Part shown: positions 31,363-35,633 of the stretch, piece after piece | How positions within the stretch are numbered: position 1 is the stretch's first letter | Layout of the letters: each line of letters starts with the position of its first letter | Sequence record: OR992645.1 | Reading direction: 5' to 3' (one strand) | DNA length: 64,000 nt | Source of the DNA: Escherichia phage EI-SP-GF | Program-made: the position numbers and the translations under genes | The notes under the pieces: generated by a model | What the model saw: only the letters and a program-made list of their open reading frames with translations | Told to the model about the DNA's origin: nothing | Databases searched by the model: none

Positions 31363-31608
31363 ATGGCTGAAGTAGTTGCTCGCGCAGGACAGAAAGTACG
31401 TTGTGTTGAAGTAGGTTTTGGTGGCAAAGGGTGTCAAAACTTGACTCAAGGTAAGGAATACACTGTTGTTTCTGGTGGTGGTGACGAAAGTATTGTGTTC
31501 GATGACCATATTCTGGATGTTGAAAACTTTGAAATAATTGACGATGATGGTGATCCGATCACCTGCCTGCTGAACGGGAGTTGGGGCACTTTCGAAGTAA
31601 TTGGCTAA
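31363..31608 (+). CDS. Hypothetical protein
   Basis: AGGAGA RBS; 81 aa. Confidence 0.55.
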   Translation: MAEVVARAGQKVRCVEVGFGGKGCQNLTQGKEYTVVSGGGDESIVFDDHILDVENFEIIDDDGDPITCLLNGSWGTFEVIG

Positions 31609-31645
31609 TAAATAGCTGTTGTAATTTACAGAAGGAGATGCTAAA

Positions 31646-32056
31646 ATGGTGTCTCCTTTATGTTGTTCAAATAAAATCGGAGATTCCACAATGGAACAAA
31701 TGAACGATCAAGCGTCGGTTGCGATGAACGAGCAAGAACAACCTCAAGAATTTTTCTTAGGGTTAAGCAAAGATCAAGTGTCTCTTCTGCTGGTACTTTC
31801 TTCTTTTATGGGAAGACTTCAGGAGCTCACACAACAACCAGAGGCTGAACAGTTATTTCAGGCTCTGCGCGAAGAAGAAAAATATCGTCGTTTGGATTAT
31901 GCCTTAGGTTGGGTAGCTCAGCAACGAGATATGCTAATGGCCCTTTCTGGGACGACAAGTTTTGCAATGGGCCTGTTGGCTCAAGTGCAGGACAAATTAA
32001 TTCAAGCAGGGTTTGCACACACAGCAAACACCAACGAAGAACAAGGAGACAAATAA
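31646..32056 (+). CDS. Hypothetical Gln-rich protein
   Basis: GAAGGAGA RBS; 136 aa. Confidence 0.5.
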   Translation: MVSPLCCSNKIGDSTMEQMNDQASVAMNEQEQPQEFFLGLSKDQVSLLLVLSSFMGRLQELTQQPEAEQLFQALREEEKYRRLDYALGWVAQQRDMLMALSGTTSFAMGLLAQVQDKLIQAGFAHTANTNEEQGDK

Positions 32057-33327
32057 TGAGCGTTATTCAACAATTTGCCAACCCGATGAATCCGCGTGAA
32101 ACTGTTTTACTGGCTCACGGTATGATTAAACGTGTCAGCATCAAGCCCATTAAAGGTGCTGATCCTACAACAGGTATTAAAACCACTGTGTGGCAAGGTA
32201 AGAAAATTGAATCCAGCCACACCATCTCTTTACTGATTTCTGAACTGGACTCCTCTGATAACCTGCTCCAAGGTGGTGAAGAAGTTTGGATCAGTATGGG
32301 TGATAAACTGCTTAAGCATGGTCATCAAGACTCCGTCTCTGTTAAAATTGACGACAAGTGGGAAACCGTAACGCCAGGATGGATCGTAAATATCCCTTTG
32401 AAGGCAAACGAGCATAACGGCAAGACCTACTACAAAGGCTCACTGGCTAAAATGGTTAAGTTGGGGGCAGGAGAGGCTCCAGCAGCGCCACAGCAACAAA
32501 AACAGCAACAAGGCACACAATCACAAGGCCAGAAGCAGAAACCTCAGCAGAATGCCAATCAGGACGTTTTACGCATCTATGGTGATGTGACTCAGATTGT
32601 TGGCAACGTGGTTACTGTCAATGATCACAAGATTGGTGAAGGTGCTATGGTTGTCACGGATGAGCAGCTTAAAGACCTGGTGGTAGGTGGTCGTGTTGCA
32701 GCCATTGTTGACAAAGACACCGGAAACATTATCAGTGGTTTCAAAGCCTACCCACCTAAGGCAGAGAACGGTACACAAGGTTCTGGTGGTAAGCGTAAAT
32801 CCTCTTACGACCCCATCGGTGTAGAGACAGGGCACAGTATCAATGCATTGCAGATCATCCTGGATCGCGGGTTTAAGATTGACAGCCCTTTAGATGTGGC
32901 TAAAACACTGCACGTGGTCACCATCGAGCTTAAGAAAGAGTACGCTCAAGCCACTAACCGAACTGAAGATGAAGTAGGTGCCAGTGTTGGTAATGCGGTA
33001 TTGAACGCTTGTCGCCGTATTGACAAGAAAACGAAAGTTGATGATTTTGCAGTAGCAATTACTGCAGAGGCAAAAGATGTCTTGACTAATCTTGCTGAAC
33101 CGTTGTATGATTGGATCAAGAACGGTGCTGGAGCCACTGACCATCAAGAGCCTCAAGCTGCCAAACAGGAAGCCGCCCCACAGCAAAACACTGTAGACGC
33201 TCCTCCTGTAGATGATGCGGAAGACGACCCGATGGATCAGAATCCGGCACAGTACGACTTCTGTGATGACATACCTTTCGCTCCGGTAGGTCTGCAATAT
33301 GGTAAAAGTAGAATCTACGCATTGTAA
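32056..33327 (+). CDS. Putative ssDNA-binding protein with SSB-like acidic DDIPF motif near C-terminus
   Basis: ATG 32056 after AAGGAGA RBS; Q-rich linker; acidic tail [23 protein letters not shown] followed by 16 more residues; OB fold not verified. Confidence 0.6.
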
Positions 33328-33922
33328 GAGGTGCATCAAGTGCGGAGAGGTGAAAAACCTCTCCGAGTTCTACAAACATCCAAAGATGGCTGACGGTCAT
33401 CTTAATAAGTGCAAAGAGTGCTGTAAGAAGGCCAGCAGAGAGGCTGACCAGTTTTCCCACAACTCTTCGGAAAAAGGTGTAATACGCGTGCTGTACAAGT
33501 CTCAAAAGTGCAACAGCAAGCAAAGAGGTCACCCTCCTCCGACTTACACCAAAAAAGAGTTTAAGGAGTGGCTATACCTAAACGGTTACAAAGAGTTGTA
33601 TGATCAGTGGGTAGCCAGCGGATACGACAAAAGGAAAAAGCCTTCTTGTGACAGGATAGATGATTTCAAAGGGTACTCTTTTGATAATATCCGTTTAACG
33701 ACTTGGGGAGAAAATAAAGATAAGCAGACGGAGGATATTCTGTTGCATAGAAGCACCAGCGGTAGACGGTGTAAAAATGTAAGGAGGCTGGACATGAATG
33801 GCAACGTTCTTAAAGAATGGGTATCCCACAATTCTTGCCGAAGAGAAACAGGGATATGTGTTGATTACTACATTCATGAAAAAATTCCAGCTCCCGATGG
33901 ATACCTCTATGAATACTTCTAA
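33299..33922 (+). CDS. HNH_3-like homing endonuclease with zinc ribbon
   Basis: CxxC...CxxC zinc-ribbon-like N-terminus; [27 protein letters not shown]; overlaps 3' end of SSB-like gene by 29 nt. Confidence 0.55.
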
Positions 33923-33947
33923 CATTTAGTTAACATAGCCCTGCCCG

Positions 33948-33976
33948 AAAGGGTGGGGCATTTTTGTATAAGGAGA
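33948..33976 (+). terminator. Rho-independent terminator (same hairpin as 23139)
   Basis: GCCCTGCCC-gaaa-GGGTGGGGC followed by ATTTTTG. Confidence 0.7.
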
Positions 33977-33983
33977 TCTAAAA

Positions 33984-34400
33984 ATGACATTAGAAGATAT
34001 CATTGTTAAACCTGAGAACTATGACCGATACAACCTGTCAACTCAATCTGTAGACCTTGGATGCGCCACGGTCAGTGCGTGGCTGGTTAACGGAAAAGAG
34101 CTGGATAAATGCTTAGAAGCTCACATGTCTATTAACAAGTTTCTGGATGAAAATACTCACTGGCTGGAAGGTGCAGGTGTATACGCTTCGTGGCTAGAGA
34201 GTATGGGATTTGACTACCAATCTGAAGAGGGGTGGTGGAGCTATCTGGCTATCTGTCCAGAGACATTGCAATGCTTCATGAAATATTCTGAAGATTTGGA
34301 GTACCGGGCGGTGGTTGACAGTGCTATTGCTCGTTATAGCCGTAAACCTTTTTCCCACGACATTAAAACTGTGGAAGAATTTGTTGAAGTTTTCTGTTGA
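33984..34400 (+). CDS. Hypothetical protein
   Basis: AAGGAGA RBS; 138 aa. Confidence 0.6.
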   Translation: MTLEDIIVKPENYDRYNLSTQSVDLGCATVSAWLVNGKELDKCLEAHMSINKFLDENTHWLEGAGVYASWLESMGFDYQSEEGWWSYLAICPETLQCFMKYSEDLEYRAVVDSAIARYSRKPFSHDIKTVEEFVEVFC

Positions 34401-34759: not shown

Positions 34760-35185
34760 ATGATTTATGAAATGCCAAAACTGATTCGTGACGATGCACG
34801 AAACGCCCACACCTTTATTATGGGCAAGCGCATGGATATTATTTGCCACAAAGACTTCTGGGAAGGAAGCTACTTCACAGAATATTTTGGAAAAATGGAT
34901 GATGGCCTACTGATCCAGTTTTACACCGATGCGGAAAACAACATTAGTTGGGAGTTCGAGACCGAAGATATCCATAAACTTTTCACCTTCCTCGACATTA
35001 AGGTTAAGGCCAAGTTTGAAGAAGGTGAGTGCGACGATTGTGGATTTTATGAGGTAACAGATTTCTATCTTCCGAGCGGTAAAAACCTTTACTATGAAAG
35101 CCACTTCGGTAACTCCAATATGCCACAGTGCTGGACTGAGTTTTTTGAAATTGTGGAAGAGGAGCTGGAATATCGTGATTATTGA
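34760..35185 (+). CDS. Hypothetical protein
   Basis: GGAGAA RBS; 141 aa. Confidence 0.6.
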   Translation: MIYEMPKLIRDDARNAHTFIMGKRMDIICHKDFWEGSYFTEYFGKMDDGLLIQFYTDAENNISWEFETEDIHKLFTFLDIKVKAKFEEGECDDCGFYEVTDFYLPSGKNLYYESHFGNSNMPQCWTEFFEIVEEELEYRDY

Positions 35186-35633
35186 TACTGTAGAGGGAGA
35201 TTTAATCTCCCTTTTTAAGAGCGGTGCTGGTCACCTGATCCACGGTTGTAACTGCTTCCACACAATGGGTAAGGGTGTAGCAAAACAGATTGCCCGTGAG
35301 TTCCCTCAAGCATTGGAAGCTGATAAAATGACTATGCACGGTTGCCTAAGCAAACTGGGCGCGTTCTCCCGCTGGGAGCACTTATCTCCGATAGGTATTG
35401 TCTACGGAATAAATCTGTATACTCAGTTCTACCCAGGGCCTAATGCTGAATATTTCTCAATACTGAAAGGCTTTGAGCGAGTCAATGAAGTATTTGAGGG
35501 GTCGATTTTACCATTCTACATCCCTAAGATCGGGTGCGGCATAGGCGGTTTGAAGTGGGAACATGTAGAGGACATTATTAACCTTGCCACTTTTGATATA
35601 GATATTATAGTGGTGGAGTACAAAGGGTGTTGA
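35175..35633 (+). CDS. Macro domain protein, DarG/Poa1p-like ADP-ribosyl hydrolase family
   Basis: GDLISLFKSGAGHLIHGCNCFHTMGKGVAKQIAREFP and IPKIGCGIGGLKWEHVEDII match the DarG-type macro signature from memory; start GTG 35175 uncertain (in-frame ATG 35094 would overlap upstream gene). Confidence 0.7.
   Translation: MIIDTVEGDLISLFKSGAGHLIHGCNCFHTMGKGVAKQIAREFPQALEADKMTMHGCLSKLGAFSRWEHLSPIGIVYGINLYTQFYPGPNAEYFSILKGFERVNEVFEGSILPFYIPKIGCGIGGLKWEHVEDIINLATFDIDIIVVEYKGC

Follow-up and report, generated by a model that had tools for sequence, protein, structure and literature searches.

A homing-endonuclease-type gene and a conserved peptide extension at the SSB-type tail of an rV5-like coliphage gene

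Free-standing homing endonucleases are a known kind of gene, and the closest precedent for the locus described here is segG of phage T4 (PMC2988022). SegG is a free-standing GIY-YIG homing endonuclease encoded between genes 32 and 59, and it targets gene 32, which encodes the T4 SSB (PMC2988022). Both loci have a promoter-less, free-standing nuclease gene beside a phage SSB gene, patchily distributed among related phages. Further likenesses are co-transcription with neighboring genes and a mode of spread in which the allele without the nuclease is cut and its flanks are co-converted, both of which are predicted for the present locus. Unlike SegG, the nuclease described here is PacI-like by prediction, and its gene follows the SSB-like gene, to whose stop codon it is fused. 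It also alters the C-terminus of the SSB-like protein, and its clade recurs behind non-homologous genes whose products end in an IPF-type tail. What appears to be new is a motif-coding gene end as the target, together with a conserved SSB cap that is carried along and overprinted.

Two further systems serve as references. E. coli SSB ends in ...PPMDFDDDIPF-COOH, and the protein described here resembles it in an OB fold, a disordered acidic tail, and a D-D-I-P-F tip. It differs in having two beta domains plus a helical domain, in giving no sequence match to the bacterial-type SSB family PF00436, and in the position of its tip phenylalanine, which is not terminal. The SSB-tip pockets of DnaG, ExoI, RecO, chi, and PriA contact the carboxylate of the terminal phenylalanine (PMC5872125). 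Because this residue is internal in extended proteins, the carboxylate contact of the known pockets cannot form as described. The nuclease, in turn, is compared with PacI (PDB 3LDY/3M7K) and I-HmuI (1U3E), from which it differs as a 207-aa three-module protein encoded by a phage without a methylase partner and lacking a Pfam HNH match.

The window analyzed here is a 64,000-nucleotide stretch of Escherichia phage EI-SP-GF (OR992645.1). Its region 31600–34400 is 93–95% identical to rV5, JES2013, and ~115 further records, which places the phage among the rV5-like coliphages (Vequintavirus). The features of the locus, all on the plus strand, are as follows.

32056–33327, + strand: SSB-like gene, rV5 gp209 homologue, PHROG 4477, 423 aa
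32056–32475, + strand: N-terminal beta domain, aa 1–140, likely an OB fold (predicted)
32560–32760, + strand: second small beta domain, aa 169–235, 3' of a Q-rich disordered linker (structure model)
32803–33126, + strand: four-helix domain, aa 250–357 (pLDDT 86–95; non-specific helical matches only)
33139–33279, + strand: disordered acidic tail, aa 362–408 (pLDDT <50), with the SSB-type tip DDIPF at 33265–33279
33257–33279, + strand: left co-conversion tract, five substitutions relative to the empty-site allele (comparison with ECP32)
33280–33919, + strand: 640-nt insert, comprising the extension and the nuclease ORF through its last sense codon (alignments with ECP32, slur16, V18, and rV5)
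33280–33327, + strand: 15-codon extension plus stop, a member of the A-P-[VI]-G-L-Q-[YF]-x7-8 type
33299–33922, + strand: free-standing homing-endonuclease gene, rV5 gp208 homologue, 207 aa (nuclease assignment predicted)
33323–33421, + strand: N-terminal zinc-ribbon module, C12, C15 ... C38, C41 (conserved cysteines)
33635–33718, + strand: nuclease core motif, D118, R119, Y126, N130, and N139 (invariant or nearly so in 38 homologues)
33776–33919, + strand: C-terminal helix-rich, DNA-binding-like domain
33938–33969, + strand: strong intrinsic terminator, directly after the SSB-like gene in empty-site phages and after the nuclease gene here

The SSB-like protein and its overlap with the nuclease gene

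The 423-aa protein carries DDIPF at residues 404–408, in an internal position, as the initial annotation had claimed, and translation of the window in all six frames gives no other [DE][DE]IPF. The tip is followed by 15 residues, APVGLQY and then GKSRIYAL, and a stop, one residue fewer than first counted. The tip phenylalanine is consequently not C-terminal in the window protein, and it is C-terminal in empty-site relatives. An AlphaFold2 model built with 43 homologues (mean pLDDT 74) divides the protein into four parts. It supports the N-terminal OB fold for which a structure prediction had been suggested, together with a disordered acidic tail. Disorder is predicted for the whole of residues 362–423, extension included, and the acidic tail itself (aa 362–408) contains 13 acidic residues and 1 basic residue among 47.

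Profile comparisons point the same way at the tail. The family profile of the protein aligns its tip with the E. coli SSB C-terminus, and the match to PHROG 4477, a family annotated as function unknown, stops in the PHROG profile exactly at residue 408. Pfam, NCBIfam, and PDB sequence searches of the protein gave no match besides that of the tail to the E. coli SSB tip. In the model, the SSB-like features, namely an OB fold and a disordered acidic tail with an IPF tip, are present, and we regard the protein as an rV5-type OB-fold SSB-like protein with putative ssDNA binding. For annotation, the rV5 gp209 family can be named OB-fold SSB-like.

The extension runs into the start of the nuclease gene, as had been noted. 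The nuclease ATG at 33299 lies in the +1 frame within the extension's Q-Y-G codons, so that the 207-aa ORF and the end of the SSB-like gene overlap by 29 nt. A weak AGG is found 8 nt upstream of this ATG. An overlap of this kind might be read as a site of programmed frameshifting that yields an SSB–nuclease fusion, a reading with which the +1 frame and the conservation of the 29 nt in several phages are compatible. However, the nuclease frame of the window contains a TAG four codons upstream of the ATG, a conserved slippery site is absent, and the local RNA fold is unexceptional (z = -1.1), which together leave a fusion product exceedingly improbable. An RNA hairpin masking the nuclease ribosome-binding site was also considered and rejected, the fold of 33255–33345 being no better than that of shuffled sequences (z = -1.1).

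Alleles at the insertion site in vequintaviruses

The vequintavirus records fall into several alleles at this site. Approximately 65 of 116 have an empty site, counted as records that a 1001-nt query matches in its flanks alone (36% coverage), and their gene ends in DDDIPF-TAA followed by the terminator. ECP32 is an example, with the protein end ...AFDDDIPF-TAA and the terminator next; the DNA of empty sites of the ECP32 or FV3 type reads ...GATGATGACATACCTTTTTAACATC... Vequintavirus homologues at empty sites thus do end in DDIPF, the comparison that had been proposed. The class 1 allele, with the extension, the nuclease, and the junction seen in the window, is found in 31 records, rV5 included. 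The class 2 allele, of the slur16 type, is found in 18–25 records; here the SSB-like gene ends in ...EFDDSIPF-TGA, and a nuclease gene with a different 5' end starts 8 nt on. Decayed copies are present as well: in V18, the nuclease gene lacks its 5' part, and L065, a metagenomic relative, retains an intact extension but no more than a ~100-nt remnant of the nuclease gene.

In the lineage of this phage, the idea that an insertion remodeled the terminus holds, since the extension and the nuclease lie exactly between the native phenylalanine codon and its stop. The old stop TAA (33920–33922) now ends the nuclease ORF, and the final TTC-TAA of the nuclease may derive from the old SSB end, as judged by sequence. 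A separate suggestion, that the nuclease end YEYF-TAA is a diverged duplicate of the SSB tail, was dropped, because the sister nuclease ends in ...YQYADE-TAG and a longer resemblance is unconvincing.

The left flank carries a mark of the event. Between the window and ECP32 there are 0 differences over the last ~480 nt of the gene body and then 5 substitutions in the final 23 nt (33257–33279), which change A to D and D to C, include 2 synonymous changes, and are identical to rV5. Around 480 identical nucleotides followed by a 23-nt substitution cluster and then the insert form a pattern that fits a homing event. The same pattern would be expected if a class 1 donor had served to repair a break near the gene end and co-conversion on the left had reached only a very short way. 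The D-to-C variant also occurs in an empty allele (L059), which may represent either a precise loss or a pre-existing variant; given this allele, part of the five-substitution tract may predate the insert or reflect precise loss.

In a sister lineage whose protein is 75% identical, the left junction is the same and the right junction differs (L062 compared with the empty L064), and the L062 nuclease retains its own stop codon. Because the right junctions differ and the left junction is shared, the left junction, that is, the SSB tail, is the constant feature. The locus as a whole shows sequence features by which homing genes are recognized: presence and absence at one site, precise boundaries, a changed flank, and decaying copies.

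We consider it highly likely that a homing-endonuclease cassette was copied between the phenylalanine codon and the stop of an rV5-type SSB-like gene and that the extension came from a donor of the extended type. The native end in the genus is the acidic tail ...DDDIPF-stop, and the cassette is promoter-less and free-standing. In the donor gene, the 15-residue APxGLQY extension would already have followed the SSB tip, and the nuclease start would have been overprinted on it in the +1 frame. Cleavage of the empty allele would take place near the DDDIPF-stop codons, and the recipient would then be repaired from the donor with the left crossover inside the short tail-coding homology. As the left crossover would fall within that homology, the extension and the nuclease would have arrived together. 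Consistent with this, no allele of Vequintavirus proper other than class 1, with its nuclease, carries the extension, which indicates arrival with the nuclease from an extended-type donor by a crossover in the shared tail-coding sequence. The SSB transcript, which would now terminate after the nuclease gene, is probably the source of nuclease expression, and translation of the nuclease may depend on the weak AGG or on coupling to translation of the SSB-like gene.

The nuclease and its relatives behind IPF tails

The initial annotation labeled the nuclease HNH_3-like, a label that does not hold: no Pfam family matches at E<=1, and the motif reads D118-R119-I-D, without the catalytic histidine of D-H-x-D. 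The arginine at the second position (R119) is invariant across the family, and Pfam and NCBIfam scans of the 207-aa protein gave nothing useful. The core motif aligns to the PacI sequence DRSDSFEGYSPQNARL. This similarity is marginal (E = 0.05), with D118, Y126, N130, and N139 as core residues, and on this basis we predict that the nuclease is PacI-like (beta-beta-alpha-metal). Because the canonical catalytic histidine is missing (DRID), the putative nuclease activity rests on the analogy with PacI, in which tyrosine acts as the catalytic base (PMC4081073). The ORF is thus predicted to encode a nuclease of a recognized homing-endonuclease catalytic superfamily, with three modules: an N-terminal zinc ribbon, a PacI-like core, and a C-terminal DNA-binding-like domain. 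The adjacent gene annotated as 'endonuclease VII' can accordingly be described as a putative mobile PacI-like nuclease.

A survey of IMG/VR seeded only on the nuclease core motif returned 45 loci. All 12 of the 12 relatives that are at least 46% identical lie 15–95 nt after, or overlap, a coding end of the [DE]..IPF type. The corresponding count is 0/29 among more distant relatives with enough upstream sequence and 4/600 among control ORFs. Separate look-ups by protein identity found nuclease homologues directly behind a Proteus RecT-YqaJ-SSB module (tail ...DWDDQEIPF*), a DEAD/ResIII helicase (...DISDEDIPF plus 23 aa), a Q-rich 170-aa protein (...DEIPFNEVQ*), a PF00436 SSB (...DDEIPHSS*), and, in a RecT module, an unannotated 171-aa protein with no Pfam hit (...GSGIPF*). 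The same look-ups yielded one distant homologue (38% identity) in an unrelated context. From these associations, the nuclease clade appears to be specific to the 3' ends of genes with an SSB-type IPF tail.

The zinc ribbon is shared more widely than the core. Canonical-HNH nucleases (HH...N...H) carry the same ribbon, C-x-K-C-G...EFYKH..MADGH.NKCK.C, and sit after SSB genes of the phi92, classical, and gp209 types in nieznany, Mt1B1_P17, morffagbaw, NINP13076, mEp554, and ECOO78. As one ribbon is common to two nuclease cores at the same site, it is the likely targeting module. Tails beside these nucleases are often changed (DDSIPF, IPFN, IPFS, IPHSS, IPFNEVQ, and a 23-aa addition), as expected if the cut and insertion site is at the stop codon. 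The clade therefore offers a testable case of homing endonucleases that apparently target the DNA for a short conserved peptide motif and not one gene. Targeting of this kind would permit the colonization of unrelated genes, including those for classical SSBs, OB proteins of the rV5 and phi92 types, and a helicase with an SSB-like tip. The literature searched contains no mention of the DDIPF or extension motifs in this connection or of a homing endonuclease at SSB tails.

A functional partnership, and not homing, might in principle account for the constant position beside SSB genes. The nuclease might not be selfish at all and could instead be the working partner of the SSB, for example in SSB-recruited degradation of host DNA or in recombination, and the adjacency, often within RecT-YqaJ-SSB or Erf-SSB modules, is what such a partner would show. 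Against this, the gene is present or absent among phages that are ~95% identical, and decayed copies occur. The junctions are abrupt and accompanied by the 23-nt substitution cluster, two different cores with one zinc-ribbon module occupy the same site, and more distant relatives lie in unrelated contexts. We regard a partnership as quite improbable and favor the homing of a cassette.

The extension as a conserved peptide

The extra residues had been taken as a possible by-product of the endonuclease insertion. This does not agree with their distribution, as the same 15-residue extension is found on many phage SSBs with no nuclease nearby. Its form is A-P-[VI]-[GT]-L-[QP]-[YF] directly after IPF, followed by 7–8 residues to give 14–16 in total, and the window protein fits. 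Where a nuclease gene overlaps the SSB end, the length and sequence type of the extension are constant (APIGLQYGRNFLHCF, ASVGLQYGKHRIYAL, and APIGLQYANHAIYVL). Where the nuclease is absent, the extension is followed by a terminator or an unrelated gene, as in PVP-SE1, phi92, PD06, and the Vibrio phages V039C and 1.243.O. The P22-like epsilon34 and ECP1, again without a nuclease, carry the variant APVTLPFPRHAIHAI. The extended-tip SSBs epsilon34 gp35, phi92 gp156, the PVP-SE1 gp40-region protein, and the Vibrio phage SSBs thus share with the window protein a 14–16-residue extension after IPF. They differ in that their extension is native and usually nuclease-free, whereas in Vequintavirus it belongs to the nuclease-bearing allele only. 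The prediction that an accidental extension should be missing from nuclease-free homologues therefore fails in part, since some of them carry it; the accompanying doubt about an OB fold is not borne out by the structure model.

One pair of phages indicates the order of events. The sequences of phi92, without a nuclease, and nieznany, with one, are identical through the TAA of the extension and divergent beyond it, and the first ~9 codons of the nieznany nuclease are the +1 reading of the extension. In the phi92/nieznany lineage, the extension came first and the nuclease body was joined to it later.

The extension is also widespread. At least 80% of the tip-plus-extension peptide is covered in 219 of the 654 phage records that carry the tip, and in 103 of 722 plasmid records, which are mostly non-mobilizable replicons of 40–100 kb and mostly of phage-plasmid size. 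A degenerate DNA pattern for the extension retrieved 42 IMG/VR loci and 8 of 185,579 species genomes, all from Gammaproteobacteria except one Parasphingorhabdus MAG. In 42 distinct nuclease-free coding sequences, the peptide is kept and synonymous sites are saturated (pS about 0.8), which again speaks against an accidental by-product; as the IMG/VR pattern fixes the first seven residues, pN there is biased low and this conservation is partly built in. Unbiased conservation evidence comes from the gp209 family, a set retrieved by the whole protein with the tail not used. Within it, 27 of the 68 complete homologues carry A/S-P/Y-V/I/A-G-L-Q-Y, relatives only 25–40% identical included, and the remaining 41 end at ...PF. 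A search with 45-aa fragments yielded nothing beyond short annotated SSB fragments (Enterobacterales and Vibrio) and is of no use as a census. The conservation of the peptide cannot be put down wholly to hitch-hiking with the nuclease. An independent function is probable for a peptide that is conserved in other settings, and the comparisons above indicate that the extension was imported as a conserved module and did not arise by accident.

The extension could still be a scar of read-through, neutral or slightly deleterious, by which the SSB tip is inactivated and which is tolerated because host SSB substitutes or because the phage does not need the tip contacts. In the known SSB-tip pockets, the bound group is the carboxylate of the last phenylalanine (PMC5872125), and idiosyncratic tails do occur beside related nucleases (IPFN*, IPFS*, IPFNEVQ*, IPHSS*, and IPF plus 23 aa), as a scar would predict. 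The window's extension, however, has a fixed length and sequence, its amino acid sequence is conserved in unrelated SSBs and unrelated hosts, and we consider a scar unlikely.

A second possibility is that selection acts on the extension, with the nuclease as its passenger and the phage gaining from an internal tip. The gain could lie in blocking host SSB partners or SSB-sensing defenses, in a new C-terminal partner, or in regulated proteolytic unmasking. This reading is compatible with the mobility mechanism given above and differs from it only in what maintains the allele. Several observations argue for it: the phage and plasmid counts, the saturated synonymous sites of the nuclease-free sequences, the presence of the peptide in distant gp209 relatives, and the retention of the extension in L065 after nuclease loss. 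In addition, the canonical PPMDFDDDIPF is intact upstream of the extension in hundreds of phage SSBs. On the other side, two thirds of the vequintavirus records are without the extension, and the second nuclease allele, of the slur16 type, was able to spread in its absence. In addition, disorder is predicted for the tail, and the low pN in IMG/VR is in part a product of the pattern. Selection on the extension is thus a serious possibility, to which we give somewhat less than even weight.

The cassette copied into the SSB-like gene remains our preferred account of the locus. Its extension might act as a shield, as a switch (clipping being one way), or as a new docking end. The other alternative in the initial annotation, an internal tail variant with its own role, may also apply. 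In a broader form, to which we again give somewhat less than even weight, the extension would be a phage-specific module that makes the SSB tip internal, rewires or blocks the host SSB interactome or evades SSB-sensing defenses, and has been moved between non-homologous SSB genes by a clade of PacI-like and HNH homing endonucleases that recognizes SSB-tail DNA and has its start codon overprinted on the extension. If true, this would apply to hundreds of phages of Gammaproteobacteria. The module is apparently undescribed, and no description of the APxGLQY extension was found in the literature searched.

The need for a free IPF-COOH in SSB–partner contacts is a view from E. coli. The type phage rV5 and 30 other isolates are viable with the supposedly obligatory C-terminal phenylalanine of the tip buried. 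With extended SSBs, it can be tested directly which contacts with the host interactome a phage SSB requires and if the cap serves as shield, switch, or new docking site.

A beta-clamp-binding motif and a ClpX-type C-terminal degron were both considered within the extension, and neither is claimed, the Q being replaced by P in the epsilon34 type. The last 7–8 residues of the extension are mostly hydrophobic or basic and end in I, L, F, or M.

An SSB-type tip on a helicase and altered tails beside related nucleases

Outside SSB-like genes, a homologue of the window nuclease lies 24 nt 3' of a DEAD/ResIII helicase gene on a 113-kb phage contig:

L078 1-1476, strand not given: DEAD/ResIII helicase
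L078 1501-2118, strand not given: homologue of the window nuclease

The helicase ends in ...AYDISDEDIPF followed by 23 more residues, and this tail with its adjoining nuclease indicates that the SSB-type tip is found on a helicase and has been colonised there too.

Changes are also frequent in SSB tails adjoining related nucleases, which terminate as DDEIPHSS, DDDIPFN, DEIPFNEVQ or DEIPFS (loci L084 920-1408, L089 628-1125, L080 913-1425, L095 and L098). At L098, the upstream ORF and the IPF tail are in different frames. In ECOO78, where a canonical-HNH nuclease follows the SSB gene, a PacI site lies within CCTTTTAATTAA at the stop, probably a coincidence.

Empty sites and other uses of the overprinted start

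Classical SSB ends carry the overprinted start at two loci, and two further loci are empty of the nuclease:

L013 4680-4760 and L014 591-670, strand not given: classical SSB ends, where the same-frame (+1) ATG opens another ORF
L059 3620-3780, strand not given: empty-site vequintavirus allele on a 136.7-kb ENA metagenome scaffold
L064 3245-3440, strand not given: empty intergenic region of the sister lineage, with a good sigma-70-like promoter (TTGACA ... TATATA)

At L013 and L014, the ORF encodes a non-nuclease protein of 97 aa beginning MEKAESTHYLNAPP..., whose first 8 residues are similar to the MVKVESTH of the window nuclease; here, the overprinted start serves a gene other than the nuclease. 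The L059 allele has the D-to-C variant of class 1 (the extension-plus-nuclease arrangement of the window) and lacks both extension and nuclease; it either arose by precise excision or is a precursor allele that was resistant. Within the sister lineage, L062 has the nuclease insertion in place of the sigma-70-like promoter seen in L064.

Flanking genes and database records

Two further ORFs flank this region in the window:

31646-32056, + strand: 136-aa ORF (PHROG 7310), overlapping the SSB-like start by one base (TAATG)
35094-35633, + strand: 179-aa ORF, whose counterpart in related phages bears the annotation macro-domain protein or Tk.4 phosphatase

In phi92 (gp157) and nieznany, and also in PVP-SE1 according to the phi92 annotation, the SSB-like gene is preceded at the position of the 136-aa ORF by a small ORF, and the pair may form a conserved two-gene module.

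Among the records found, the closest to the window is OR845159.1, a 4.6-kb GenBank fragment of Escherichia phage EC22.5-2 with 100% identity to window positions 33262-33400. Another 16-20 GenBank records (MG0656xx), labelled 'Campylobacter phage', match rV5-like phages of E. coli at ~94% identity over this region, and their host label looks doubtful.
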